Origin: Escherichia coli
GTDB taxonomy: Bacteria; Pseudomonadota; Gammaproteobacteria; Enterobacterales; Enterobacteriaceae
DNA: 64,000 nt
NCBI RefSeq assembly: GCF_030013205.1
Contig: NZ_CP122648.1
Direction: 5' to 3' (one strand)
Part shown: positions 9,343 through 61,826 of the stretch, piece after piece
Numbering within the stretch: the first letter of the stretch is position 1
How the letters are laid out: every line of letters starts with the position of its first letter
Notes under the pieces: model-generated
Database searches by the model: none
The model's input: the letters and a program-made list of their open reading frames with translations, nothing else
Told to the model about the DNA's origin: nothing
Translations under genes and position numbers: made by a program

Positions 9343-10268
<926 letters not shown>

Positions 10269-20789: not shown

Positions 20790-21520
20790 GCATAGCCGGA
20801 GGTTTTTCAAATGCGCCTATAAGGCTCTCTTACCAGCCGCGCCCTAACAGGCGCACACGATCTGACATTTGCATCCAACTTCGTTACTTACGGCCCGTAA
20901 ACGGGCTGCCCGGATAGGGAATCGATAACTGCTCTCCCATTTTATCCTCTTCAAGCTGGTGCTTTATGTAATCCTGTATCTTCGCCGTGTTCTTACCCAC
21001 CGTATCGACGTAGTACCCTCTGCACCAGAACTCTCTGTTCCTGTATTTGAATTTCAAATCACCAAACTGCTCGTAAAGCATCAGACTGCTTTTCCCTTTC
21101 AGATATCCCATAAAGCCGGATACGCTCATTTTGGGCGGGATCTCCACAAGCATATGGATATGATCTGCACAGCATTCAGCTTCAAGAATCCGTACGCTTT
21201 TCCACTCACACAGCTTTCTCAAAATACTGCCTATTGCTCTACGCTTCTCTCTGTAGAACACTTGTCTTCGGTATTTTGGCGCAAAAACTATGTGATATTT
21301 ACAGTTCCATCGGGTGTGCGCTAAGCTCTTTTCGTTCCCCATTGGGACCCCCTTTTGATTTCTTGTTTGACACTTGCAGTTGCCAGACCGCAAGGTGTTT
21401 TAACAAATCAAAAGGGGTTTTAATAACTGGCTCAAAGCTGAAAGCTTTCCGGAACCCCCAGCCTAGCTGGGGGTTTTCTGTGCACAAAAAAAACGCCGAC
21501 AATGTGCCGACGTTTTGATA
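20790..21520 (-). mobile_element. IS200-type insertion sequence (IS200/IS605 family); boundaries approximate
   Basis: The ycaL-aroA spacer is ~880 bp and contains a Y1 transposase ORF with flanking hairpins (e.g. CCCCCAGCCTAGCTGGGGG at ~21463-21485); ends not mapped precisely. Confidence 0.6.
20884..21342 (-). CDS. tnpA: IS200 transposase TnpA (HuH/Y1 single-strand transposase), 152 aa
   Basis: MGNEKSLAHTRWNCKYHIVFAPKYRR...ADHIHML (HuH motif)...; near-identical to recalled IS200 TnpA. Confidence 0.9.
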   Translation of the reverse strand: MGNEKSLAHTRWNCKYHIVFAPKYRRQVFYREKRRAIGSILRKLCEWKSVRILEAECCADHIHMLVEIPPKMSVSGFMGYLKGKSSLMLYEQFGDLKFKYRNREFWCRGYYVDTVGKNTAKIQDYIKHQLEEDKMGEQLSIPYPGSPFTGRK

Positions 21521-36778: not shown

Positions 36779-39223
36779 TTACACCTTTTCAACCTGAACA
36801 AGGTTTGTATGTGACGGATTCCCCTTAGCGAGAGGAGACGGACGTTGAGTGGTCAGTACGTTGATACAACCGCCCTTATCGACACGTTTTGCATCCGGGT
36901 CATACCAGGCACCTTCACCCAGTGCGACCACACCCGGCATCATTCGTGGCGTCACTTTCGCCTCAATATGAACTTCACCACGGTCATTAAAGATCCTGAC
37001 ATTATCGCCGTTGTTGATACCGCGTTTTTGTGCATCAAGCGGGTTGATCCACATTTCCTGACGGCAAGCTGCTTTCAGCACATCAACGTTGCCGTAAGTT
37101 GAGTGAACGCGAGATTTGTAGTGGAAGCCAGTAAGCTGCAGCGGATATTGTTTGTTCAGCGGATCCTGATAACTTTCAAAGCCCGGCGTATAGATCGGCA
37201 GTGGATCGATCACATCGCCTTCTGGCAATTCCCAGGTCACGGCAATGTCAGCCAGCGCCTGCGAATAAATCTCAATTTTACCCGATGGCGTGGTCAGTGG
37301 ATTTGCCTGAGGATCTTCACGGAAAGCTTTATAAGCAACGTGGTGCCCTTGTGGGTCGCGCTTTTTAAAGATCCCCTGCTTGCGGAACTCTTCAAACGTT
37401 GGCAGTTCAGGAATCGCTTCCCGCGACTGGGCATACAGATGCCGCATCCACTCTTCCTGTGTACGGCCTTCAGTAAACTGTTGCTCAACGCCAAGACGTT
37501 TTGCCAGTTCGCTGGTCATTTCATAGATGGTCTTACATTCAAAGCGCGGTTTAATCACCTGATCGTTGAAAATCACGTAAGACATATTCCCGCAGGATGC
37601 ATCCAGTGCAAAGTCCATCTGTTCGGAAGCGGTGCAGTCAGGCAGCAGGATGTCAGCATATTTCGCTGATGAGGTCATGTGGCAGTCGATAACCACAATC
37701 AGCTCGCACTTCTTATCATCCTGAAGGATTTCATGGGTACGGTTGATTTCAGAATGCTGGTTAATCAGGCAGTTACCGGCATAGTTCCAGATCATTTTGA
37801 TCGGCACATCCAGCTTATCTTTCCCGCGCACACCATCACGCAGCGCTGTCATTTCCGGGCCACGTTCAATGGCATCGGTCCACATAAACATCGAAATGCT
37901 GGTCTGGATCGGGTTTTCGAGGGTCGGCATACGGACAAACGGTAAGCTGTATGAACCTTCACGCGCGCCGCTGTTGCCTCCGTTAATACCAACGTTACCG
38001 GTCAGAATCGCCAGCATCGAGATAGCACGGGTTGCGATTTCACCGTTAGCGTGACGCTGCGGGCCCCATCCCTGGCTGATGAACGCCGGTTTGGTACTAC
38101 CGATTTCACGAGCCAATTTGATGATTTTGTCTGCCGGAACACCGGTGATTTGCGAGGCCCATTCCGGCGTTTTAGCCACGCCATCTGGCCCTTCACCCAG
38201 AATATAAGCTTTATAGTGACCATTTTTCGGCGCACTGGCTGGCAGTGTTTTCTCGTCGTAGCCAACGCAATATTTATCGAGGAATGCCTGATCCACCAGG
38301 TTTTCGGTGATCATGACATACGCCAGACCGTTAACCAGTGCGGCATCTGTTCCCGGACGAATAGGGATCCACTCATCTTCGCGCCCGGCACCGGTGTCGG
38401 TATAGCGCGGATCGATGATGATCATGCGAGCATTAGATTTCTGGCGCGCCTGTTCAAGATAGTAAGTCACCCCACCGCCACTCATTCGCGTTTCGCCAGG
38501 GTTATTACCAAACAGCACTACCAGTTTACTGTTTTCGATATCCGACGGGCTGTTACCATCTGCCCAGCCGCCGTAGGTATAGTTCAAACCTTCCGCAATT
38601 TGCGCGGAAGAGTAGTCACCGTAATGGTTCAGATAACCGCCGCAGCAGTTCATCAGGCGAGCGACCAGGGTATTTCCCGGCGGCCAGGAGCGGGTCATGG
38701 TGCCACCCAGCGTACCGGTGCCATAGTTCAGATAGATGGATTCGTTGCCGTACTCTTTGATCAGGCGCTGCATATTGGTCGCGATGATGTCGTAGGCTTC
38801 TTCCCAGCTAATGCGCTCGAATTTGCCTTCACCGCGCGCCCCGACTCGTTTCATCGGATATTTCAGGCGGTCCGGATTGTAGACACGGCGACGCATGGAA
38901 CGCCCACGCAGACAGGCGCGCACCTGGTGCAGGCCGTCATAGTTGTCATCGCCGGTATTATCCGTTTCAACATATTTAATTTCACCGTCCACAACGTGCA
39001 TACGTAGCGGGCAGCGACTACCACAGTTAACTGTACAGGCGCTCCAGATAACCTTTTCGTCTGATTTTGTTGGAATGGCGCTATCGACAGCGTGCGCAAT
39101 CCGACTAAAAGGTAATGTTAACGCGCTGCTTGCCATTGCCAGGCCGCCGATCGCTGTCGTTTTTACCAAACCACGGCGACTCACCTCAGCAGCCAATACC
39201 GCATCAGGGATTTTCGTTTTCAT
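36779..39223 (-). CDS. dmsA: DMSO reductase catalytic subunit DmsA (molybdopterin), 814 aa
   Basis: Tat signal (SRRGLVK), N-terminal Cys cluster, molybdopterin oxidoreductase body. Confidence 0.97.
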   Translation of the reverse strand: MKTKIPDAVLAAEVSRRGLVKTTAIGGLAMASSALTLPFSRIAHAVDSAIPTKSDEKVIWSACTVNCGSRCPLRMHVVDGEIKYVETDNTGDDNYDGLHQVRACLRGRSMRRRVYNPDRLKYPMKRVGARGEGKFERISWEEAYDIIATNMQRLIKEYGNESIYLNYGTGTLGGTMTRSWPPGNTLVARLMNCCGGYLNHYGDYSSAQIAEGLNYTYGGWADGNSPSDIENSKLVVLFGNNPGETRMSGGGVTYYLEQARQKSNARMIIIDPRYTDTGAGREDEWIPIRPGTDAALVNGLAYVMITENLVDQAFLDKYCVGYDEKTLPASAPKNGHYKAYILGEGPDGVAKTPEWASQITGVPADKIIKLAREIGSTKPAFISQGWGPQRHANGEIATRAISMLAILTGNVGINGGNSGAREGSYSLPFVRMPTLENPIQTSISMFMWTDAIERGPEMTALRDGVRGKDKLDVPIKMIWNYAGNCLINQHSEINRTHEILQDDKKCELIVVIDCHMTSSAKYADILLPDCTASEQMDFALDASCGNMSYVIFNDQVIKPRFECKTIYEMTSELAKRLGVEQQFTEGRTQEEWMRHLYAQSREAIPELPTFEEFRKQGIFKKRDPQGHHVAYKAFREDPQANPLTTPSGKIEIYSQALADIAVTWELPEGDVIDPLPIYTPGFESYQDPLNKQYPLQLTGFHYKSRVHSTYGNVDVLKAACRQEMWINPLDAQKRGINNGDNVRIFNDRGEVHIEAKVTPRMMPGVVALGEGAWYDPDAKRVDKGGCINVLTTQRPSPLAKGNPSHTNLVQVEKV

Positions 39224-39393
39224 AATGGCTCACTCAAGCTTGCTCACGATTGATTCCAGTAACAAACCGTATTGTGTAATTATTTCTATAGCAGGTCGCT
39301 ATATAGGCTTGTATACATCGAATAATTTGAAAATCAAAGAGATAGGTAGATTTTCACTCGAAAGTAGTATTACGTGTAAGTGAGGAGTAATTA

Positions 39394-39407
39394 TTGTTCG
39401 GTATCAA
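39394..39407 (-). promoter_or_regulatory. Putative FNR-like half-site pair upstream of dmsA
   Basis: TTGTT-CGGT-ATCAA resembles the FNR consensus; distance to the dmsA start (~180 bp) makes assignment uncertain. Confidence 0.25.
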
Positions 39408-39419
39408 AGGGAGACAAAA

Positions 39420-39439
39420 AAAGCGCCCGCAGGCGCTTT
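39420..39439. repeat. attL: 20-bp direct repeat AAAGCGCCCGCAGGCGCTTT (prophage boundary)
   Basis: Identical copy at 60471-60490; palindromic stem; here followed on the minus strand by a T-run, i.e. the intact host terminator context. Confidence 0.8.
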
Positions 39440-39522
39440 AACGTTTCTTGCTCCCCCTGATGATTTACTTATTTTTCAACGAATAAGCCAAAACAGGGGG
39501 AACAAATTAACACAAATTATAA

Positions 39523-40515
39523 CTAATCGATGGACAGTTTATGGACACTTTCAGCCAGCGGATTAAAGTTGATCGCGTCCTGTAAGAAGTCCGGCGAAAA
39601 ATGAGCGTACGTCATTGTTTGCTGAATCGTTGCGTGCCCCAGGATTCGTTGCAACGTAACAATATTTCCGCCATTCATCATAAAGTGTGTGGCAAATGTA
39701 TGACGCATGACATGCGTAGCCTGCCCCTTCGGCAAATCCGGTTTCACCTCCTGAAGAATCTCCCGGAACTTCAGATAATCAACCTGATACAATAACCCCG
39801 TTCGACGGGTTTTAATCAGAGGCACGACCGAATCCGCCACAGGAACCGAACGGGATTTTCCGTTTTTGGTGTTAAAGAACGTCACCCGGTTGCCAACGAT
39901 ATGCTCTCCACGTAGTTCCGATGCTTCACTCCATCGGGCACCAGTAGAAAGACACAGAATGGCAACACGACGCGCATCACCCTCCAGTCGCTCAAGAAGC
40001 CGTTCAATCTCATCATCAGAAAGAAAGGCCATCTCTGTGTTCTGAACTTTCAGTTTTCGTATACCGCGTACAGGGTTCGCGTTGTGAAAGACCTCAGCTT
40101 CAATCAGCACCGTGAACATGGTAGACAGTACGCATAAGTCACGATTAATACTGGACGGCATTAATCCGGCCTGTAATTTCTCTGACCGATATTCAAGCAT
40201 AAATTTTCGCGTCATCTGACTGGCGCGAGGATCTCCCATTTCACGAACAACCTTCCCTAGCCTAACCCTGTAGCTATCCCCGTAAGCCTGATTACGCCCA
40301 TCAAGCATCCACCACGCATCAAGCAGCTCTGATAATCGCCGCTGATCAGCTGGCTTAGCCTGCCATGGCTTGTCATGAAAGTTCTGTAACACATACTTCT
40401 CAAACTCCTGAGCCTTTGATTTCAGGGCAAAGATTTTTCGAATCCGCTTTCCTTCCGCCCCCTGCGGTCTGACATCGACCTGATAACGTCCGTCTTTGAG
40501 TTGCTTAATCGACAT
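39523..40515 (-). CDS. int: Phage integrase (tyrosine recombinase, P2 Int-like)
   Basis: N-terminus MSIKQLKDGRYQVDVRPQG resembles P2 Int; C-terminal catalytic region with HxxR...Y; adjacent to attL. Confidence 0.88.
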   Translation of the reverse strand: MSIKQLKDGRYQVDVRPQGAEGKRIRKIFALKSKAQEFEKYVLQNFHDKPWQAKPADQRRLSELLDAWWMLDGRNQAYGDSYRVRLGKVVREMGDPRASQMTRKFMLEYRSEKLQAGLMPSSINRDLCVLSTMFTVLIEAEVFHNANPVRGIRKLKVQNTEMAFLSDDEIERLLERLEGDARRVAILCLSTGARWSEASELRGEHIVGNRVTFFNTKNGKSRSVPVADSVVPLIKTRRTGLLYQVDYLKFREILQEVKPDLPKGQATHVMRHTFATHFMMNGGNIVTLQRILGHATIQQTMTYAHFSPDFLQDAINFNPLAESVHKLSID

Positions 40516-40584: not shown

Positions 40585-40926
40585 TCAGCCAACATTGCGG
40601 CCTGATCGGGGTGATTTTTGGGTAATACCGATTGAAACCTGATCGCCCTCCGACTGAATAGATCCATCAAGAGAGAGAGCCGGAGCAATCTGCCCGGCGA
40701 CAGGTAGCGTCTTATCTTTTATTAGCCACAGCATGTATTTTTCAAAGCGATCGACTTGCAGAACCGCCTCAACGATTTTTGCTCTAGCGTTCTTTTGCCC
40801 CGATTCGTAATTCCTTATGGTTGCCAAAGACAACCCAGTAATATCCGCAAACTGCTTTTGTGTTAACCCTTCCGCCTTACGTATCTGACGTAACTTTTTT
40901 GCATAGTCTATTGACAAGATAACCAT
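40585..40926 (-). CDS. Prophage repressor (P2 C-like, HTH)
   Basis: HTH LTQKQFADITGLSLATIRNYESG and C-terminal GQIAPAL motif resembling P2 C; start uncertain (ORF extends to 40980). Confidence 0.75.
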   Translation of the reverse strand: MVILSIDYAKKLRQIRKAEGLTQKQFADITGLSLATIRNYESGQKNARAKIVEAVLQVDRFEKYMLWLIKDKTLPVAGQIAPALSLDGSIQSEGDQVSIGITQKSPRSGRNVG

Positions 40927-41030: not shown

Positions 41031-41552
41031 ATGCGGGACTTCATTGCCGATAAAGAGTTATCTGACCACCAACCACTTCAGGAAAGTGACGCACTCAGCG
41101 GATCCATTGATGCCGCCAACGACGACGAACACGAAGAAAACAAGAAAAAGCGTTCCTACAAAAAAGGAGCGACTTTACGGCTGGATGGTCCGATCGCCGG
41201 GCTTTGCTCTCTGGAAAAAGGCGCGGCATATATTGGGCTAACAAAATCTGCACTGCGCGTAGCCATTCATCGCGGTCAAATGCCGGGACACAAGACGCGC
41301 ACAAACCCGGAAGATGAAAACTCAGACGGAGTATGGTGGTTTAACGCCAAAGAGTGGGACGCACTGGCTGACGAGCTACCGGAACTTGAGCCACCAGAAT
41401 GGCACAACTGGAAAAGTTACTGGACGTATGACCGCCAGAAAAGAAAGTTCTTTCCAGCTAATAAAGAAGACTGCCAGACCATTAACGGTAAGCGAGTTTA
41501 TACAGGCAGAAGCTCAAAACTGAACCAACTCAGAAACAACAGAGGCAACTAA
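41031..41552 (+). CDS. Early protein with excisionase/AlpA-like HTH (possible Cox analogue), 173 aa
   Basis: First gene of the rightward early operon with a good RBS; segment YIGLTKSALRVAIHRGQMPG resembles Xis/AlpA HTH. Confidence 0.5.
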   Translation: MRDFIADKELSDHQPLQESDALSGSIDAANDDEHEENKKKRSYKKGATLRLDGPIAGLCSLEKGAAYIGLTKSALRVAIHRGQMPGHKTRTNPEDENSDGVWWFNAKEWDALADELPELEPPEWHNWKSYWTYDRQKRKFFPANKEDCQTINGKRVYTGRSSKLNQLRNNRGN

Positions 41553-45637: not shown

Positions 45638-46004
45638 TTAAACCCGGCCAGTGAAAATCACTGGCCGGAGCAGTATCAGGATTTTTTAGTATGCCGTTCT
45701 CACAAAAAAACCGCTTGCCATGCCGCAATCAGTCAGGTTACATTTCCGCTGCACCTCATAAAACGGGTGCCGGGATTTCCACCCCGCTGACAACCAAAGC
45801 GCACAACCGCGCCAGCGGTTTTTTTGTGCGTACCGTATCGCCACGTCTTTTTCGCACACGAATTATGGTGGGGCGTATGGGGCCGACTTCGGTCGGGCCG
45901 GGTTCTTTGGTTGCCGGTTGTGGAAACCCTGTACGTCTCACCACCCCGAGTTTTCCACCTCTGGATGGTGAGTTTTCAAAACTTACAACCAAAGAGGCCA
46001 CACC

Positions 46005-46679: not shown

Positions 46680-46967
46680 ATGACAGCAGAGTACATCAGG
46701 GACTGGCAACAACCGCGCCACGCAGTGGGGCGTGAAGGAACGGGGATCCCTGCTCCTGAAGCGGTGGAAGGTGTCGCAACGTCACAGGCCGACATTATCG
46801 ACCGTTTTAATGCGCTGGAAACCCGCCATCAGCAGGACAGCCAGAAAATCACTTTACTGACCACAGAGCTGACAGCACTGAAGGAAAAACTGCGCACGCA
46901 GGACGGCGATCCGCAGAACCGGTTCACCGCAACGGGCGCAGCCTCCGATCAACTGGCTGACTTCTGA
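46680..46967 (+). CDS. Hypothetical phage protein, 95 aa
   Basis: Tightly packed ORF. Confidence 0.45.
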   Translation: MTAEYIRDWQQPRHAVGREGTGIPAPEAVEGVATSQADIIDRFNALETRHQQDSQKITLLTTELTALKEKLRTQDGDPQNRFTATGAASDQLADF

Positions 46968-46990
46968 TAAGACAAAGGAGCAAATTTTTT

Positions 46991-47254
46991 ATGAATCTGG
47001 TGATGTCAGATATTACCCGCAACAAGCTGGGTTGCTATATGGCGCAGCAGGCGTCGCTTAACAACATCCCGGTATCTGCACTGGTATCGCGATTTACCGT
47101 GGAACCCTCGGTGTCCGCCATTGCTGCCGCACTGCATGTGCACGGTGTGCAACGCGTGGAAATAATCGAACCCACACAGAATATGGCCATCAGCGACATA
47201 CAGGCGGCGCGCTGTGAGTCATTCACCATCAGCGAAGGTGGACGCAATGAGTAA
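46991..47254 (+). CDS. Short ORF (87 aa) overlapping the gpI start; possibly a 3' remnant of baseplate gene J
   Basis: 8-bp overlap with gpI as expected for a J/I junction; far shorter than P2 J (~300 aa). Confidence 0.35.
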   Translation: MNLVMSDITRNKLGCYMAQQASLNNIPVSALVSRFTVEPSVSAIAAALHVHGVQRVEIIEPTQNMAISDIQAARCESFTISEGGRNE

Positions 47255-47784: not shown

Positions 47785-50442
47785 ATGAGCACGAAATTTA
47801 AAACCGTTATCACTACTGCCGGAGCCGCGAAGCTGGCAGCCGCCACTGTCCCCGGCGGGAAAAAAGTAACTCTGTCTGCAATGGCCGTGGGTGACGGTAA
47901 TGGCAAATTGCCGGTGCCGGATGCCGGTCAGACGAAACTGGTGCATGAGGTCTGGCGTCACGCTCTGAATAAAGTCAGCGTGGATAACAAGAATAAAAAC
48001 TATATCGTGGCTGAACTGGTTGTACCGCCAGAAGTGGGCGGCTTCTGGATGCGTGAGCTGGGTCTGTATGACGATGCCGGAACACTGATTGCGGTCGCTA
48101 ACATGGCGGAAAGCTATAAACCTGAACTCGCTGAAGGCTCCGGGCGCGCGCAGACCTGCCGCATGGTTATTATTGTCAGCAACGTGGCGTCCGTTGAGCT
48201 GAGTATTGATGCCAGCACAGTGATGGCGACGCAGGATTACGTCGATGACAAAATCGCAGAGCATGAGCAGTCCCGCCGCCATCCTGACGCCACGCTGACA
48301 GAAAAAGGTTTTACTCAGTTAAGTAGCGCAACAAACAGCACCAGTGAAGAGCTGGCGGCAACGCCAAAGGCAGTAAAAGCAGCCTATGACAATGCTGAAA
48401 AACGTATGCAGAAAGACCAGAACGGTGACGATATTCCAGATAAGGGCGCTTTTCTGGACAACGTTGGCGTTACCAGCCTGACGTTTATGAAAAACAATGG
48501 CGAAATGCCGCTTGATGCTGACTTGAATACATTTGGTCCCGTTAAGGCTTATCTTGGCATCTGGTCTAAAGCAACATCCACCAACGCAACACTGGAGAAA
48601 AATTTCCCGGAAGATAATGCTGTCGGTGTGCTTGAGGTTTTTGCAGCTGGCAATTTTGCAGGCACGCAACGTTTTATCACGAGAGACGGCAATGTATACA
48701 TGCGTAAACTCGCCAATAAGTGGAATGGCACTGATGGTCCGTGGGGCGTATGGCGTCACACTCAATCAGCTACCCGCCCTTTGAGTACGACTATAGACCT
48801 GAATACGCTTGGAGCCGCTGAGCATCTTGGTTTATGGCGTAACAGTAGCTCGGCTATAGCTTCATATGAACGCAATTATCCAGAGGAAGGCGGCTTTGCT
48901 CAGGGGACGCTTGAGATCCTCGAAGGCGGGAATTATGGAAGAACGCAACGTTATACCACTCGTCGTGGGAATATGTACGTTCGCTGCCTTGCGGCAAGCT
49001 GGGATGCATCAAATCCGCAGTGGGAACCGTGGTTAAGAGTCGGTCATCAGTCAGAGAGCCGTTATTACGAAGGTGATTTGAATGTTCTAACCGACCCCGG
49101 TATTTACAGTGTTACAGGAAAGGCGACAAACGGTCCGATGCTGGACGCTGCTGGGGCGACATTGCTTGGGATACTGGAAGTAATCAGGCGTTTTGATGGT
49201 GTATCTGTCTGGCAGCGTTACACAACCACAGGGAAATCAGAAACCACACAGGGGCGCACTTTTGAGCGCGTCTACGCCGGGAGCACATGGACCGAATGGC
49301 GAGAAGTGTATAACTCCTTTTCGTTGCCCCTGAATATGGGGATCGGTGGCGCAGTGGCAAAACTCACCAGCCTGGACTGGCAGACCTACGATTTTGTGCC
49401 GGGCAGTCTGATAACCGTTCGGCTTGATAACATGACCAATATTCCCGACGGTATGGACTGGGGCGTCATTGATGGCAACCTGATAAACATCGCTGTTGGT
49501 CCGAGTGATGATTCCGGTACGGGGCGCTCAATGCATGTATGGCGCAGCACTGTAAGTAAAGCGAATTACCGCTTTTTTATGGTTCGCATTTCAGGAAATC
49601 CGGGAAGCCGCACGATTACGACAAGACGTGTGCCAATTATCGACGAAGCTCAGACATGGGCGGCGAAACAGACATTCAGCGGTGGTCTTTCTGGCGAACT
49701 ATCCGGCAATGCTGCTACAGCAACAAAGCTGAAAACGGCAAGGACAATTAACGGCGTAAAATTTGACGGCTCGGCAAATATTGAAGCGTTTCCGCCAGGT
49801 GTTCCGCTGCCGTGGCCATCAGATACTGTGCCGTCTGGTTACGCCCTGATGCAGGGACAGACTTTTGATAAATCTGCATACCCGAAACTTGCAGTCGCTT
49901 ATCCGTCAGGCGTGATCCCGGATATGCGTGGCTGGACAATCAAGGGCAAACCCGCCAGTGGTCGGGCCGTATTGTCTCTGGAACAGGACGGCATTAAATC
50001 GCACACCCACAGTGCCAGCGCATCCAGTACGGATTTGGGTACGAAAACCACATCGTCGTTTGATTACGGTACTAAATCAACGAATAACACAGGTGCACAT
50101 ACCCACAATGTATCTGGTACTGCAAATAGTGCTGGCGCACATACTCATACCGTTCCATTAAGGAGACCAAACAGTGGCGGTATGAATTTCGACTGGCTGG
50201 ATGGTGCATCAAGTGGCACGGTGGTGGGGAATGGAACTGTGCCTTCTTCTGGCGCACATACCCACTCAGTATCAGGTACCGCTACAAGTGCTGGGGCACA
50301 TGCACACACTGTTGGTATTGGCGCTCATACGCACTCTGTTGCGATTGGTTCACATGGACACACCATCACCGTTAACGCTGCTGGTAACGCGGAAAACACC
50401 GTTAAAAACATCGCATTTAATTATATTGTGAGGCTTGCATAA
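47785..50442 (+). CDS. Tail fiber protein (P2 gpH-like), 885 aa
   Basis: Conserved N-terminal fiber domain ([20 protein letters not shown]...), internal repeats, C-terminal HxH repeats (GAHTHxVSGTAxSAGAH) ending [11 protein letters not shown]. Confidence 0.9.
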
Positions 50443-51059
50443 TGGCATTCAGAATGAGTGAACAATCACGTACTGTAAAAATTTATAACCTGCTGGCCGG
50501 AACTAATGAGTTTATTGGTGAAGGTGACGCATATATTCCACCTCATACAGGGCTGCCAGCCAATTCTACAGATATCGCCCCACCGGAAATTCCTGCTGGC
50601 TTTGTGGCAGTTTTTAACAGTGAAAATGAATCGTGGAATATTGTTGAAGACCATCGTGGTAAAACGGTCTATGACGTGGCATCGGGGGACGCGTTGTTTA
50701 TTTCTGAACCCGGACCGCTACCAGAGAATGTCACCTGGTTGTCGCCAGCAGGGGAGTATCAGAAGTGGGACGGCGTATCCTGGGTGAAGGATGAGGAAGC
50801 AGAAAAACTGTTTCGGATACGGGAAGCGGAAGAGAAAAAGGCAAGGTTGATCCAGGAAGCAACAGATAACATCGCAATTCTGCAGGATGCAGTTAATCTT
50901 GAAATAGCAACAAACGAGGAAAATTCACAACTGGATTCCTGGAGAAAATACAGAGTATTAGTGAGTAGAATTGACACCAGTACAGCTCCGGATATCGTAT
51001 GGCCAGAGCTGATGAATCAGGGTTATGTGCGGGAGGACGAGCAGATAACTTCAGACTGA
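50442..51059 (+). CDS. Tail fiber assembly chaperone (P2 gpG/Tfa-like), 205 aa
   Basis: TAATG-coupled to the fiber gene; Tfa-like sequence. Confidence 0.8.
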
Positions 51060-51586
51060 AATTTAGTGATGAATGTTGAATCATCTGGAATATCATGCAA
51101 TACCAATGCATGAGCACCTATTGTGACATTGTTTCCTATACGCACTTTGCCACCAAGAATGGTGGCATTACAACCAATGGTCACATTATGTCCTATAACA
51201 ATATCCATATCATTAAAATCACCACGCAGCCCAATAGTTACCCCTGGTTTTATTGAACAATTTTCACCGATTGTTACTTTGTGACCGATAACAACACTGT
51301 TGAGATAAGAAATATCAAAGCCTTTCCCTATATTTACAGTTAAAGGGACTGTTACATTATATTTATCAAGAATGAAACGTTCTATTTTCCCCGCAATCTT
51401 CCGACAGCATCCGCCTTTATCAAAAAGGTATTTGGCTATGCGCCACCAAAATAAATAACGAACTCTTCTATGTTTTATTGCGCGAACAATTGCCTTTCGC
51501 CAGGAGAAAGGACGCTCGCTACCGATTACTTCATAGTGAATACAATCTTTAAGTTCATTAATATTCATATCTCTATTATTCAGCAT
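51023..51586 (-). CDS. Hexapeptide-repeat O-acetyltransferase (WcaB/CysE-like), 187 aa
   Basis: Left-handed beta-helix repeats ([45 protein letters not shown]); AT-rich; 37-bp convergent overlap with the fiber assembly gene. Confidence 0.75.
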
Positions 51587-59618: not shown

Positions 59619-59879
59619 ATGTTCCGTTGTCCGCTTTGTGGCGCATCTGCCCGTATCCGCACCAGTCGTCCGGAAAATGATTCAAACACCGTGCGGCAAA
59701 AGTATTACCAGTGCAACAACCTGGAATGCGGCGTATGCTTCTCAACACTGGAAGCTTTCCATAAATTCACATCGAAACACGCCTCCGGCATCCACTCTTC
59801 AGAAGGTATCCCGTGGCATGAGCTGCCAGCTTCACACAGGGGAAACAATCAGATGAGCTTGCCTTTACCTCAGAATTAA
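59619..59879 (+). CDS. ogr: Ogr/Delta-like zinc-finger late gene activator, 86 aa
   Basis: MFRCPLCGASARIRTSR...QKYYQCNNLECG: CxxC...CxxC arrangement as in P2 Ogr. Confidence 0.8.
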   Translation: MFRCPLCGASARIRTSRPENDSNTVRQKYYQCNNLECGVCFSTLEAFHKFTSKHASGIHSSEGIPWHELPASHRGNNQMSLPLPQN

Positions 59880-59939: not shown

Positions 59940-60152
59940 ATGGTCGGAGGGAATACCCGAAGGCCGGATGTGGAAAGGCCCCGGAAAACATTTTTGTTTA
60001 ACCGAGGCCCTGACCATACAACCTTCGCAAGTCGTAGGTTAGCGCCTCTCCAACAAAGGAGCAAGCGCTATGTCGCAAAAATCGCTTATGGCCATCACGT
60101 TCTGCGTGACGGTAATCCTCATCATCTGGATGCTGCACGGTTCGCTGTGTGA
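59940..60152 (+). CDS. Mok-like reading frame overlapping the hok-like toxin gene
   Basis: 70-codon ORF in another frame, starting upstream of and ending within the toxin ORF, as in hok/mok loci. Confidence 0.4.
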   Translation: MVGGNTRRPDVERPRKTFLFNRGPDHTTFASRRLAPLQQRSKRYVAKIAYGHHVLRDGNPHHLDAARFAV

Positions 60153-60210
60153 AATACGGATGAGCTTCTGGGGAGCGGAGTTTGCGGCGTTCTTACAGTG
60201 TAAGCAGTAA
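60070..60210 (+). CDS. Hok/Gef-family type I toxin, 46 aa (MSQKSLMAITFCVTVILIIWMLHGSLCEIRMSFWGAEFAAFLQCKQ)
   Basis: N-terminal TM helix then SLCEIR and AAF motifs characteristic of Hok-family toxins; RBS AAGGAG 8 nt upstream; below the ORF-track length cutoff. Confidence 0.75.
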   Translation: MSQKSLMAITFCVTVILIIWMLHGSLCEIRMSFWGAEFAAFLQCKQ

Positions 60211-60302
60211 GGAAACCGCGACGGGGGAGCAATCCCCCGTCAATCGGTTGCCAGGGTAAAGGTCGAAAAGGCACCCTATTTCCAGTTGACGTGAACAACA
60301 AG

Positions 60303-60336
60303 CCCGCAGCGTAAAAACTGCGGGTTTTCTTTTTGG
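60303..60336 (+). terminator. Rho-independent terminator, likely 3' end of the hok-like mRNA
   Basis: CCCGCAG-loop-CTGCGGG followed by TTTTCTTTTT. Confidence 0.6.
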
Positions 60337-60367
60337 TTCCCTCACTCATGAGGAAACCAAAAACAAA

Positions 60368-60396
60368 GCCCACAGCATAGAAGCTGTGGGCTTTTT
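60368..60396. terminator. Bidirectional hairpin terminator between the hok-like locus and serS
   Basis: GCCCACAGC-ATAGAA-GCTGTGGGC with T-runs on both strands. Confidence 0.55.
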
Positions 60397-60470
60397 GCAT
60401 TCAAAGATGGACGTTATATGGACACTTAAAAATAAAATCCATTTATTTTCAAATGATTAAACCTCTACTT

Positions 60471-60490
60471 AAAGCGCCCGCAGGCGCTTT
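60471..60490. repeat. attR: 20-bp direct repeat AAAGCGCCCGCAGGCGCTTT
   Basis: Identical to 39420-39439; 23 bp downstream of the serS stop. Confidence 0.8.
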
Positions 60491-60512
60491 TTAGATTCAG
60501 AAAAATTGGGTA

Positions 60513-61826
<1,314 letters not shown>

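Follow-up and report, generated by a model that had tools for sequence, protein, structure and literature searches.

Integration of a P2-family prophage at the predicted serS terminator hairpin of Escherichia coli

INTRODUCTION

When the attachment core of a prophage coincides with the transcription terminator of a host gene, what remains of that terminator after integration, and where does transcription of the host gene end? The question is raised by a 64,000-nucleotide stretch of Escherichia coli DNA (i.e., the window), in which a 21-kb P2-family prophage of the PhiECO5/UTI89 type (E. coli ETEC4079) is inserted between dmsA and serS. We consider it probable that the attachment core is the 20-bp repeat of this prophage, that the integrase recombines inside the serS terminator hairpin, and that the serS terminator is weakened as a result, with a phage terminator acting as a backstop 77 nt farther on.

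RESULTS AND DISCUSSION

The repeats that bound the prophage are attachment-site junctions

An exact 20-nt direct repeat (AAAGCGCCCGCAGGCGCTTT) occurs at 39420-39439 (attL) and at 60471-60490 (attR), 21,051 bp apart (Table 1). The 14-mer GCGCCCGCAGGCGC has exactly two matches in the window (39423-39436 and 60474-60487, both on the plus strand), while shuffled sequence gives 0.08. The repeat has dyad symmetry: a stem of 5 G/C base pairs, which reaches 8 bp with its AAA/TTT ends, encloses a loop of 4 nt. The loop is the sole asymmetric part of the repeat, reading CGCA on the plus strand and UGCG on the serS strand.

Joining the left flank of attL to the right flank of attR yields the empty site (a 202-nt reconstruction), which is intact in 5076 of the 5426 complete E. 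coli genomes and 100% identical in strains K-12 and HS. The order in K-12 MG1655 is the serS stop codon TAA, 20 nt, AAAAA-GCGCC-TGCG-GGCGC-TTTTTTT-GTCTCC, and then the dmsA upstream region. Occupied junctions were found in 348 E. coli genomes for attL (int beside dmsA) and in 346 for attR; in every other E. coli genome, the match to the attR query starts at 60471 only. The empty and occupied classes sum to essentially all of the E. coli genomes, and therefore one phage family in one orientation explains the occupied sites. As is characteristic of P2-type attachment sites, attL and attR share an identical core, and joining the flanks reproduces the empty site precisely. The repeats are true attachment-site junctions; a chance repeat or a transposon target duplication is ruled out by the empty-site reconstruction together with the integrase and the anatomy of the arm sites.

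The att site belongs to an already catalogued P2-like prophage group. In their catalogue of P2-type att sites, Nilsson et al. (2011) placed the UTI89 prophage PhiECO5 at 911187-948481 (Table 1 in PMC3448106), and the UTI89 matches of our search fall at 910768-912081. The two elements share the locus beside serS, the integrase type, the C repressor/Cox switch, and arm repeats of the tgTGGaCa type; they differ in that the window prophage is a 21-kb deletion remnant, whereas PhiECO5 is an element of roughly 35 to 37 kb. The cores in that catalogue were deduced from attL/attR junctions, and the word "terminator" does not occur in the paper (PMC3448106).

Gene content and recombination anatomy of the prophage

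The gene layout (Table 1) was read from the annotation of NZ_CP122643.1 (E. coli ETEC4079), which is 100% identical to the region. Pfam searches identified the Int_N (9.9e-28) and Phage_integrase (1.1e-18) domains in Int and confirmed the HTH_3, Phage_Cox, Ogr_Delta, and HOK_GEF domains in other prophage proteins. Int is 56% identical to P2 Int, and the Int protein search returned no free phage with a closer integrase. The portal, terminase, capsid, and lysis genes and most of the baseplate genes are gone. Since relatives measure about 35 kb (e.g., the E. albertii prophage), the 21-kb element is a deletion remnant. The E. albertii type strain is itself a lysogen, with an Int that is 99.7% identical and junctions that lie 35.4 kb apart.

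TABLE 1 Features of the dmsA-prophage-serS region (positions in the window; tail scores and discriminants were calculated as described in the text and are reliable only for the direction of change)
Feature	Position	Strand	Basis and remarks
dmsA	36779-39223	-	Annotation; upstream region (39224-39415) remains joined to the intact predicted terminator at attL
Rfam STnc130 (RF02084) match	39314-39448	+	Spans the entire dmsA-serS intergenic region, antisense to both genes, and ends in the att hairpin; putative RNA
Original serS T7 tract (A7 on the + strand)	39416-39422	-	Now part of a full predicted terminator downstream of int; tail score, 5.73, and discriminant, 54, as in the native site; terminator-like by scan
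attL common core	39420-39439	.	Stems, 39423-39427 and 39432-39436; loop, 39428-39431; exact direct repeat; empty-site identity stops at 39439
int (P2-type tyrosine integrase)	39523-40515	-	Transcribed towards attL and dmsA; annotation, Pfam, comparison with P2 Int
Putative arm-type Int-binding direct repeat, P' arm, ATGGACAGTTTATGGACAC	39530-39548	+	Overlaps the 3' end of int; same pattern as in the P arm
C-like repressor	40585-40926	-	Annotation
cox	41031-41552	+	Annotation
Early genes, then fragments of replication, scaffold, and capsid genes	about 46680-47113		Annotation; tail genes come next
ogr	59619-59879	+	Annotation
hok/gef-family toxin (cargo gene)	60070-60210	+	Annotation and Pfam HOK_GEF; past both phage terminators as viewed from serS
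First + strand terminator after hok (phage backbone)	60300-60327	+	Predicted by scan; also present where YafO replaces hok
Phage bidirectional terminator	60365-60394	.	Predicted; on the serS strand, 9- to 12-bp stem followed by TTTGTTTTTGG; 77 nt past the attR hairpin; minus strand called by scan
Putative arm-type Int-binding direct repeat, P arm, ATGGACGTTATATGGACAC	60407-60425	+	Pattern found twice in the window, with 0 expected; fits the P2-type consensus
Lysogen tail after the hairpin, TTTAAGTAGAGGTTT	60459-60473	-	serS strand; three T's from the core, remainder phage DNA
attR common core	60471-60490	.	Hairpin still behind serS; stems, 60474-60478 and 60483-60487; prophage-free genomes match from 60471 rightwards only
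T5 at attR	60488-60492	+	With the hairpin, a complete predicted terminator facing transcription from the prophage towards serS; tail score, 4.74, and discriminant, 23.7
serS (seryl-tRNA synthetase)	60513-61805	-	Stop codon, 60513-60515; annotation and open reading frame list

At 46680-47113, short pieces of a replication gene, the gpO scaffold gene, and the gpN capsid gene abut each other. Adjacent Rfam matches above threshold to the Hfq-binding RNA isrK (45751-45825, plus strand; 64.3 bits) and to C4 antisense RNA (45861-45948, plus strand; 80.5 bits) lie in the early region beside an "ash family" pseudogene. The tail-fibre gene contains, at 50092-50313 (plus strand), diverged tandem repeats that encode a His-rich GAHTH motif, and a serine acetyltransferase gene (51023-51568, minus strand), which is probably cargo, occupies the opposite strand just past the tail-fibre assembly gene. 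The slot between ogr and the att-proximal terminators carries a variable toxin cargo within an unchanged backbone: a hok/gef gene here, in UTI89, and in ST131, and a YafO-family toxin gene in E. coli EC361 (locus L005, 160-540). Outside the prophage, an IS200C transposase gene (20884-21342, minus strand) lies between ycaL and aroA in an otherwise standard E. coli core order from mukFEB through dmsABC.

The pattern ATGGAC-N5-ATGGACAC has just two matches in the window, 39530-39548 and 60407-60425, one per phage arm; the consensus of the P2-type arm repeats is tgTGGaCa (PMC3448106). An IHF-like site (TTTCAAATGATTA, 60447-60459) is the single match with one mismatch. In the reconstructed attP, a 10-bp perfect inverted repeat flanks the loop (TTAAAGCGCC CGCA GGCGCTTTAA). 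The 8-bp stem arms (AAAGCGCC and GGCGCTTT) may represent a symmetric pair of core-type Int sites, and the asymmetric 4-nt loop would then sit in the strand-exchange (overlap) region and set the orientation.

Two exact-pattern scans of IMG/VR gave no match to an intact attP, and a megablast search with the reconstructed attP returned no GenBank phage record that spans the junction. The near-identical "phages" vB_EcoM-569R5, 705R2, and PV468777 were rejected as free phages, being prophage cut-outs that still contain dmsA. Because the phage collections searched hold no intact attP, the attP layout and the role of the phage hairpin as the int terminator in the free phage are reconstructions.

The core coincides with the predicted native terminator of serS

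In K-12, the hairpin begins 25 nt past the serS stop codon, and T7 comes directly after it. Its serS-strand form has a 5-bp all-G/C stem and a C(UGCG)G loop (i.e., a UNCG-type tetraloop), with a folding energy of -9.7 kcal/mol versus -7.9 kcal/mol for the other strand. The tail TTTTTTTG stands directly behind the stem at the empty site and at attL, and the pattern scan calls this arrangement terminator-like.

We scanned the genomes of 100,044 species for exact matches to the 20-mer, a sample that excludes species with a diverged hairpin, and found at least 120 loci in very diverse bacteria. Among the matches listed, at least 17 loci lie beside serS in Enterobacterales (SerS, 85 to 100% identical). 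In all 16 of the non-lysogenic species among these listed matches, the same hairpin follows serS at 8 to 41 nt past the stop codon and has 6 to 8 T's in the next 8 nt; the sole serS-adjacent exception in the list is attR of E. albertii (TTTAAGAAGAGG). On the UGCG-loop strand of the 119 copies listed, at least 6 T's are present in 107 and at least 5 in 118, and the one copy that falls to 4 or fewer T's over the 8 nt following the stem is again the lysogen attR of E. albertii. The T-run of the other strand is variable (4 or fewer T's in 30 copies among the matches listed; 3 to 6 T's beside serS), and only the serS-strand T-tract is conserved across species.

On sequence and conservation, the hairpin with its long U-tract is predicted to be a conserved serS terminator. 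This agrees with the initial annotation, in which the att core had been read as the serS terminator stem-loop; K-12 and the 16 other species bear out that reading. By the same comparison, the lysogen junction is an unnatural configuration of the predicted serS terminator, and the 20-nt core itself is, as a sequence type, a generic, recurrent terminator hairpin design of the C(UNCG)G class. The Term-seq supplement of Adams et al. gives only serS-internal 3' ends, and the TERMITe supplements have no entry for serS. The hosts of the 20-nt core include Proteobacteria, Clostridia, Bacteroidales, and other metagenome-assembled genomes (at least 119 places), nearly always with a T-rich tail on the UGCG strand. 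Some Enterobacter, Klebsiella, and Lelliottia genomes contain two or three core copies, which could act as secondary att sites.

The opposing strand and the dmsA control region

The native site is symmetric, reading A7-hairpin-T5 on the plus strand and A5-hairpin-T7 on the serS strand. An upstream A-tract is a feature tied to bidirectional termination (PMC7445774; PMC12207403), and the A-hairpin-T layout on both strands resembles that of bidirectional intrinsic terminators, which consist of an A-tract, a hairpin, and a U-tract. The present site differs from them in that only its serS-strand T-tract is conserved and in that the sole proposed user of the other strand, the small RNA STnc130, has never been detected.

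This symmetry lends itself to a reading in which the hairpin is mainly a shared bidirectional terminator of serS and the opposing STnc130, and in which the key effect of integration would be that the small RNA loses its U5 tail at attL. With a gathering score of 55 as the threshold, the Rfam match to STnc130 on the plus strand reaches 136.4 bits in this window and 140.1 bits in the empty site of K-12; it is of full model length and ends in the hairpin and a U-rich tail. However, Sittka et al. (2008) reported STnc130 as a computational class V prediction with 0 cDNA reads and a Northern result of "nd" (PMC2515195 supplement), and the RNA is given only as "putative" in PMC3632133. No sigma-70-like promoter was found upstream of the match on the plus strand, and the plus-strand T-run beside serS is not conserved (3 to 6 T's in other species). 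We thus regard a terminator governed by such sharing as very improbable and reject STnc130 as a real second user, a role left unsupported by the 0 reads and the lack of a Northern signal in the source study. As judged from its sequence context, the match stems from the conserved dmsA upstream region and the predicted terminator and does not demonstrate an RNA.

On the side of dmsA, an FNR-like site (TTGATACCGAACAA; 39394-39407, minus strand; a pattern match) lies 8 nt after the serS T7 tract, and therefore the dmsA control region is immediately adjacent to the terminator and attL. The FNR-like site is overlapped by a promoter-like match (TTGTCT-16-AATAAT, 39417-39390).

Integration divides the predicted terminator between the two junctions

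On the minus strand at attL, the hairpin, located 87 nt beyond the int stop codon, is followed by TTTTTTTGTCTCC, with 7 T's. At attR, the minus-strand hairpin is followed by TTTAAGTAGAGG; serS thus keeps the hairpin and TTTAAGTAG, with 3 of its 7 trailing T's. The attR tail (TTTAAGTA) has three consecutive T's and four T's in 8 nt, which falls short of a U-tract on the serS strand, and this TTTAAG tail is kept in all of the lysogens examined (i.e., four E. coli lysogens and E. albertii).

We compared the serS strand of the empty site and attL with that of attR by using a discriminant formula and nearest-neighbour hybrid values other than those of a validated program, such that only the direction of change is reliable: the d'Aubenton-Carafa-type tail score falls from 5.73 to 3.66, the discriminant falls from 54 to 16.5, and the energy of the 8-nt rU:dA-type hybrid, -2.8 kcal/mol at the empty site and attL, is -5.5 kcal/mol at attR. 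Both strands of attL, and neither strand of attR, are called by the pattern scanner.

These results bear on several points of the initial annotation, which had proposed terminator prediction at both junctions as a check. The predicted drop at attR did appear, both in the scores and in the scanner calls. The stem had been described as separated from its T-tract, and this holds for the T7 tract, which now stands at attL behind int, although the three T's of the core remain at attR; the description of the attR hairpin as having no T-run was nearly right in the same sense. The minus-strand terminator proposed downstream of int is present at attL, with a T-run of seven rather than five.

The sequence of the two junctions suggests how the parts would be redistributed. 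Integration would duplicate the hairpin and split the host flanks between the junctions. The T7 tract would go to attL, forming a full terminator 87 nt after int that would shield the dmsA control region, and the T5 tract of the other strand would remain at attR, facing transcription out of the prophage. Both outgoing prophage transcripts would then meet complete terminators made of the duplicated hairpin and a host flank; the one in the ogr/hok direction would come first to two phage terminators and then to the hairpin with T5 at attR. Host transcription entering the prophage would meet the hairpin with UUU and then the phage terminators; serS would retain the hairpin, the A-tract upstream of it, and three U's, after which comes AAGUAG.

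How much termination such a remnant retains depends on the weight given to the U-tract. In strong terminators, conservation is highest at the four closing G-C pairs and the first three U's, and an extended U-tract adds efficiency (PMC7445774). The attR site retains the closing G-C pairs, the first three U's, and the upstream A-tract. Integration may accordingly have no functional effect on serS, with these elements still terminating efficiently in vivo: the features kept are those most conserved in strong terminators (PMC7445774), the discriminant stays positive at attR (16.5 by the formula used here), and the junction is stable and widespread, occurring in 346 E. coli genomes of several lineages and in E. 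albertii without any compensation in the tail sequence. Against this reading, the natural copies behind serS among the matches listed all keep 6 to 8 T's in the 8 nt after the stem, the presence of at least 5 T's in 118 of the 119 copies listed argues that a longer U-tract is needed, and the pattern scan calls attR on neither strand. We consider a complete absence of effect possible but rather unlikely. The reading that we prefer is that the serS-strand terminator at attR is, in silico, weakened and not abolished; termination there could stay efficient, and some serS read-through is likely.

A phage terminator would limit read-through from serS

A hairpin at 60365-60394 faces any transcript that passes attR. 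On the serS strand, it combines a stem of -18.6 kcal/mol with a discriminant of 48.9, which, on the scale used above, is comparable to that of the native serS terminator. It is conserved in all of the lysogens examined, whether the cargo is hok (this strain, UTI89, and ST131) or YafO (EC361), and in E. albertii, as is the other backbone terminator, on the plus strand at 60300-60327. A P2 genome has the same arrangement, in which int, arm repeats, the core, and arm repeats are followed by a bidirectional hairpin that abuts ogr. Among the lysogens, the 7-bp GCCCACA/TGTGGGC base of the stem and both T-tracts are invariant, and the top two base pairs vary (GC/GC, a G-U wobble, and mismatches in E. 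albertii and EC361; locus L012, around 9450-9480).

The hairpin is likely a backstop for serS read-through and the int terminator in the free phage. Transcription of int in the free phage would run over attP, with the same hairpin and TTTAAG tail, and would end at 60394-60365; in the lysogen, the identical hairpin and TTTAAG sequence would face serS. Read-through from serS would add about 100 nt of non-coding P arm to the mRNA, stop at the backstop, and miss hok and ogr. Because a strong phage terminator backs the weakened one, the effect on serS is probably small, and the consequence is likely a slightly longer serS 3' untranslated region at most.

The initial annotation had taken the read-through farther. 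It correctly pointed to a bidirectional hairpin, which it placed at 60368-60396, and it proposed that serS might be transcribed antisense to hok and ogr until that hairpin. The proposal contradicts itself, since both genes lie past the hairpin as seen from serS, and the endpoint comes before either of them is reached. The full scenario, in which serS transcription would run far into the prophage and yield RNA antisense to hok and ogr with regulatory consequences, is in our judgment very unlikely. The serS gene is an expressed housekeeping gene and the attR tail is weak, both of which count in its favor, as do the poor tails of the remaining minus-strand hairpins before hok (60324-60303, CTTGTTGTTC; 60242-60219, CGGTTTCCTT). 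However, the strong terminator at 60394-60365 intervenes (9 to 12 bp, -18.6 kcal/mol, TTTGTTTTTGG, and 48.9) and is conserved in the lysogens checked.

Comparison with known systems

A literature search that combined serS, dmsA, and prophage found no paper, and broader searches gave general precedents only. In the case of phage HK022, insertion between torS and torT replaces the torS promoters at the 5' end of the gene, and a phenotype was demonstrated (Carey et al. 2019; PMC6814406). In both cases, an insertion at an intergenic attB parts a host gene from a cis element, and phage DNA at the junction takes over its role. The element at torS is a promoter with a demonstrated phenotype, whereas here it is the predicted terminator tail at the 3' end of serS, for which the phage terminator probably compensates. 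The integrases of phage 186, HP1, and Fels-2/SopE-phi target tRNA or tmRNA genes, where identities of, e.g., 50 to 110 nt restore the whole gene (PMC3448106). Those targets likewise encode a conserved dyad RNA stem-loop, and the phage copy rebuilds the host element at one junction; the identity at serS differs in being only 20 bp, and because of this the hairpin is rebuilt but the U-tract is not. CP4-57 at ssrA was considered as a further precedent and rejected, the change there being a tmRNA base change and not one in a terminator.

A structural analogy may also be drawn with the int/sib retroregulation of phage lambda, in which int is transcribed towards attP and thus has one 3' flank in the free phage and another in the prophage. 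The present int transcript would similarly end at the 60394-60365 hairpin in the free phage and at the host hairpin with U7 in the lysogen. The likeness is structural only and does not extend to an RNase III site or to the stability of int mRNA.

The division of the terminator could also be imagined as an adaptive design. A hyperstable C(UNCG)G target would give both outgoing transcripts complete host terminators, and the leak from serS would cross the attR arm, with its Int, IHF, and Cox sites, to reach the backstop. We give such a design little credence; if it were true, host physiology would, through the growth-rate-linked, essential serS gene, be coupled to how the excision complex assembles or to how long and how stable the serS 3' untranslated region is.

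The preferred reading (i.e., a weakened serS terminator backed by a phage terminator) is a matter of careful annotation more than of discovery, and the finding is correct but ordinary. It nevertheless provides a concrete example of a prophage junction that alters the 3'-end signal of an essential host gene, and the junction is present in about 6% of the complete E. coli genomes, including UTI89 and ST131 strains. Bobay et al. noted that the conservation of an intergenic attB requires strong purifying selection (PMC3603311). That the site would be a working terminator hairpin offers a simple reason for the conservation of an intergenic attB across genera.
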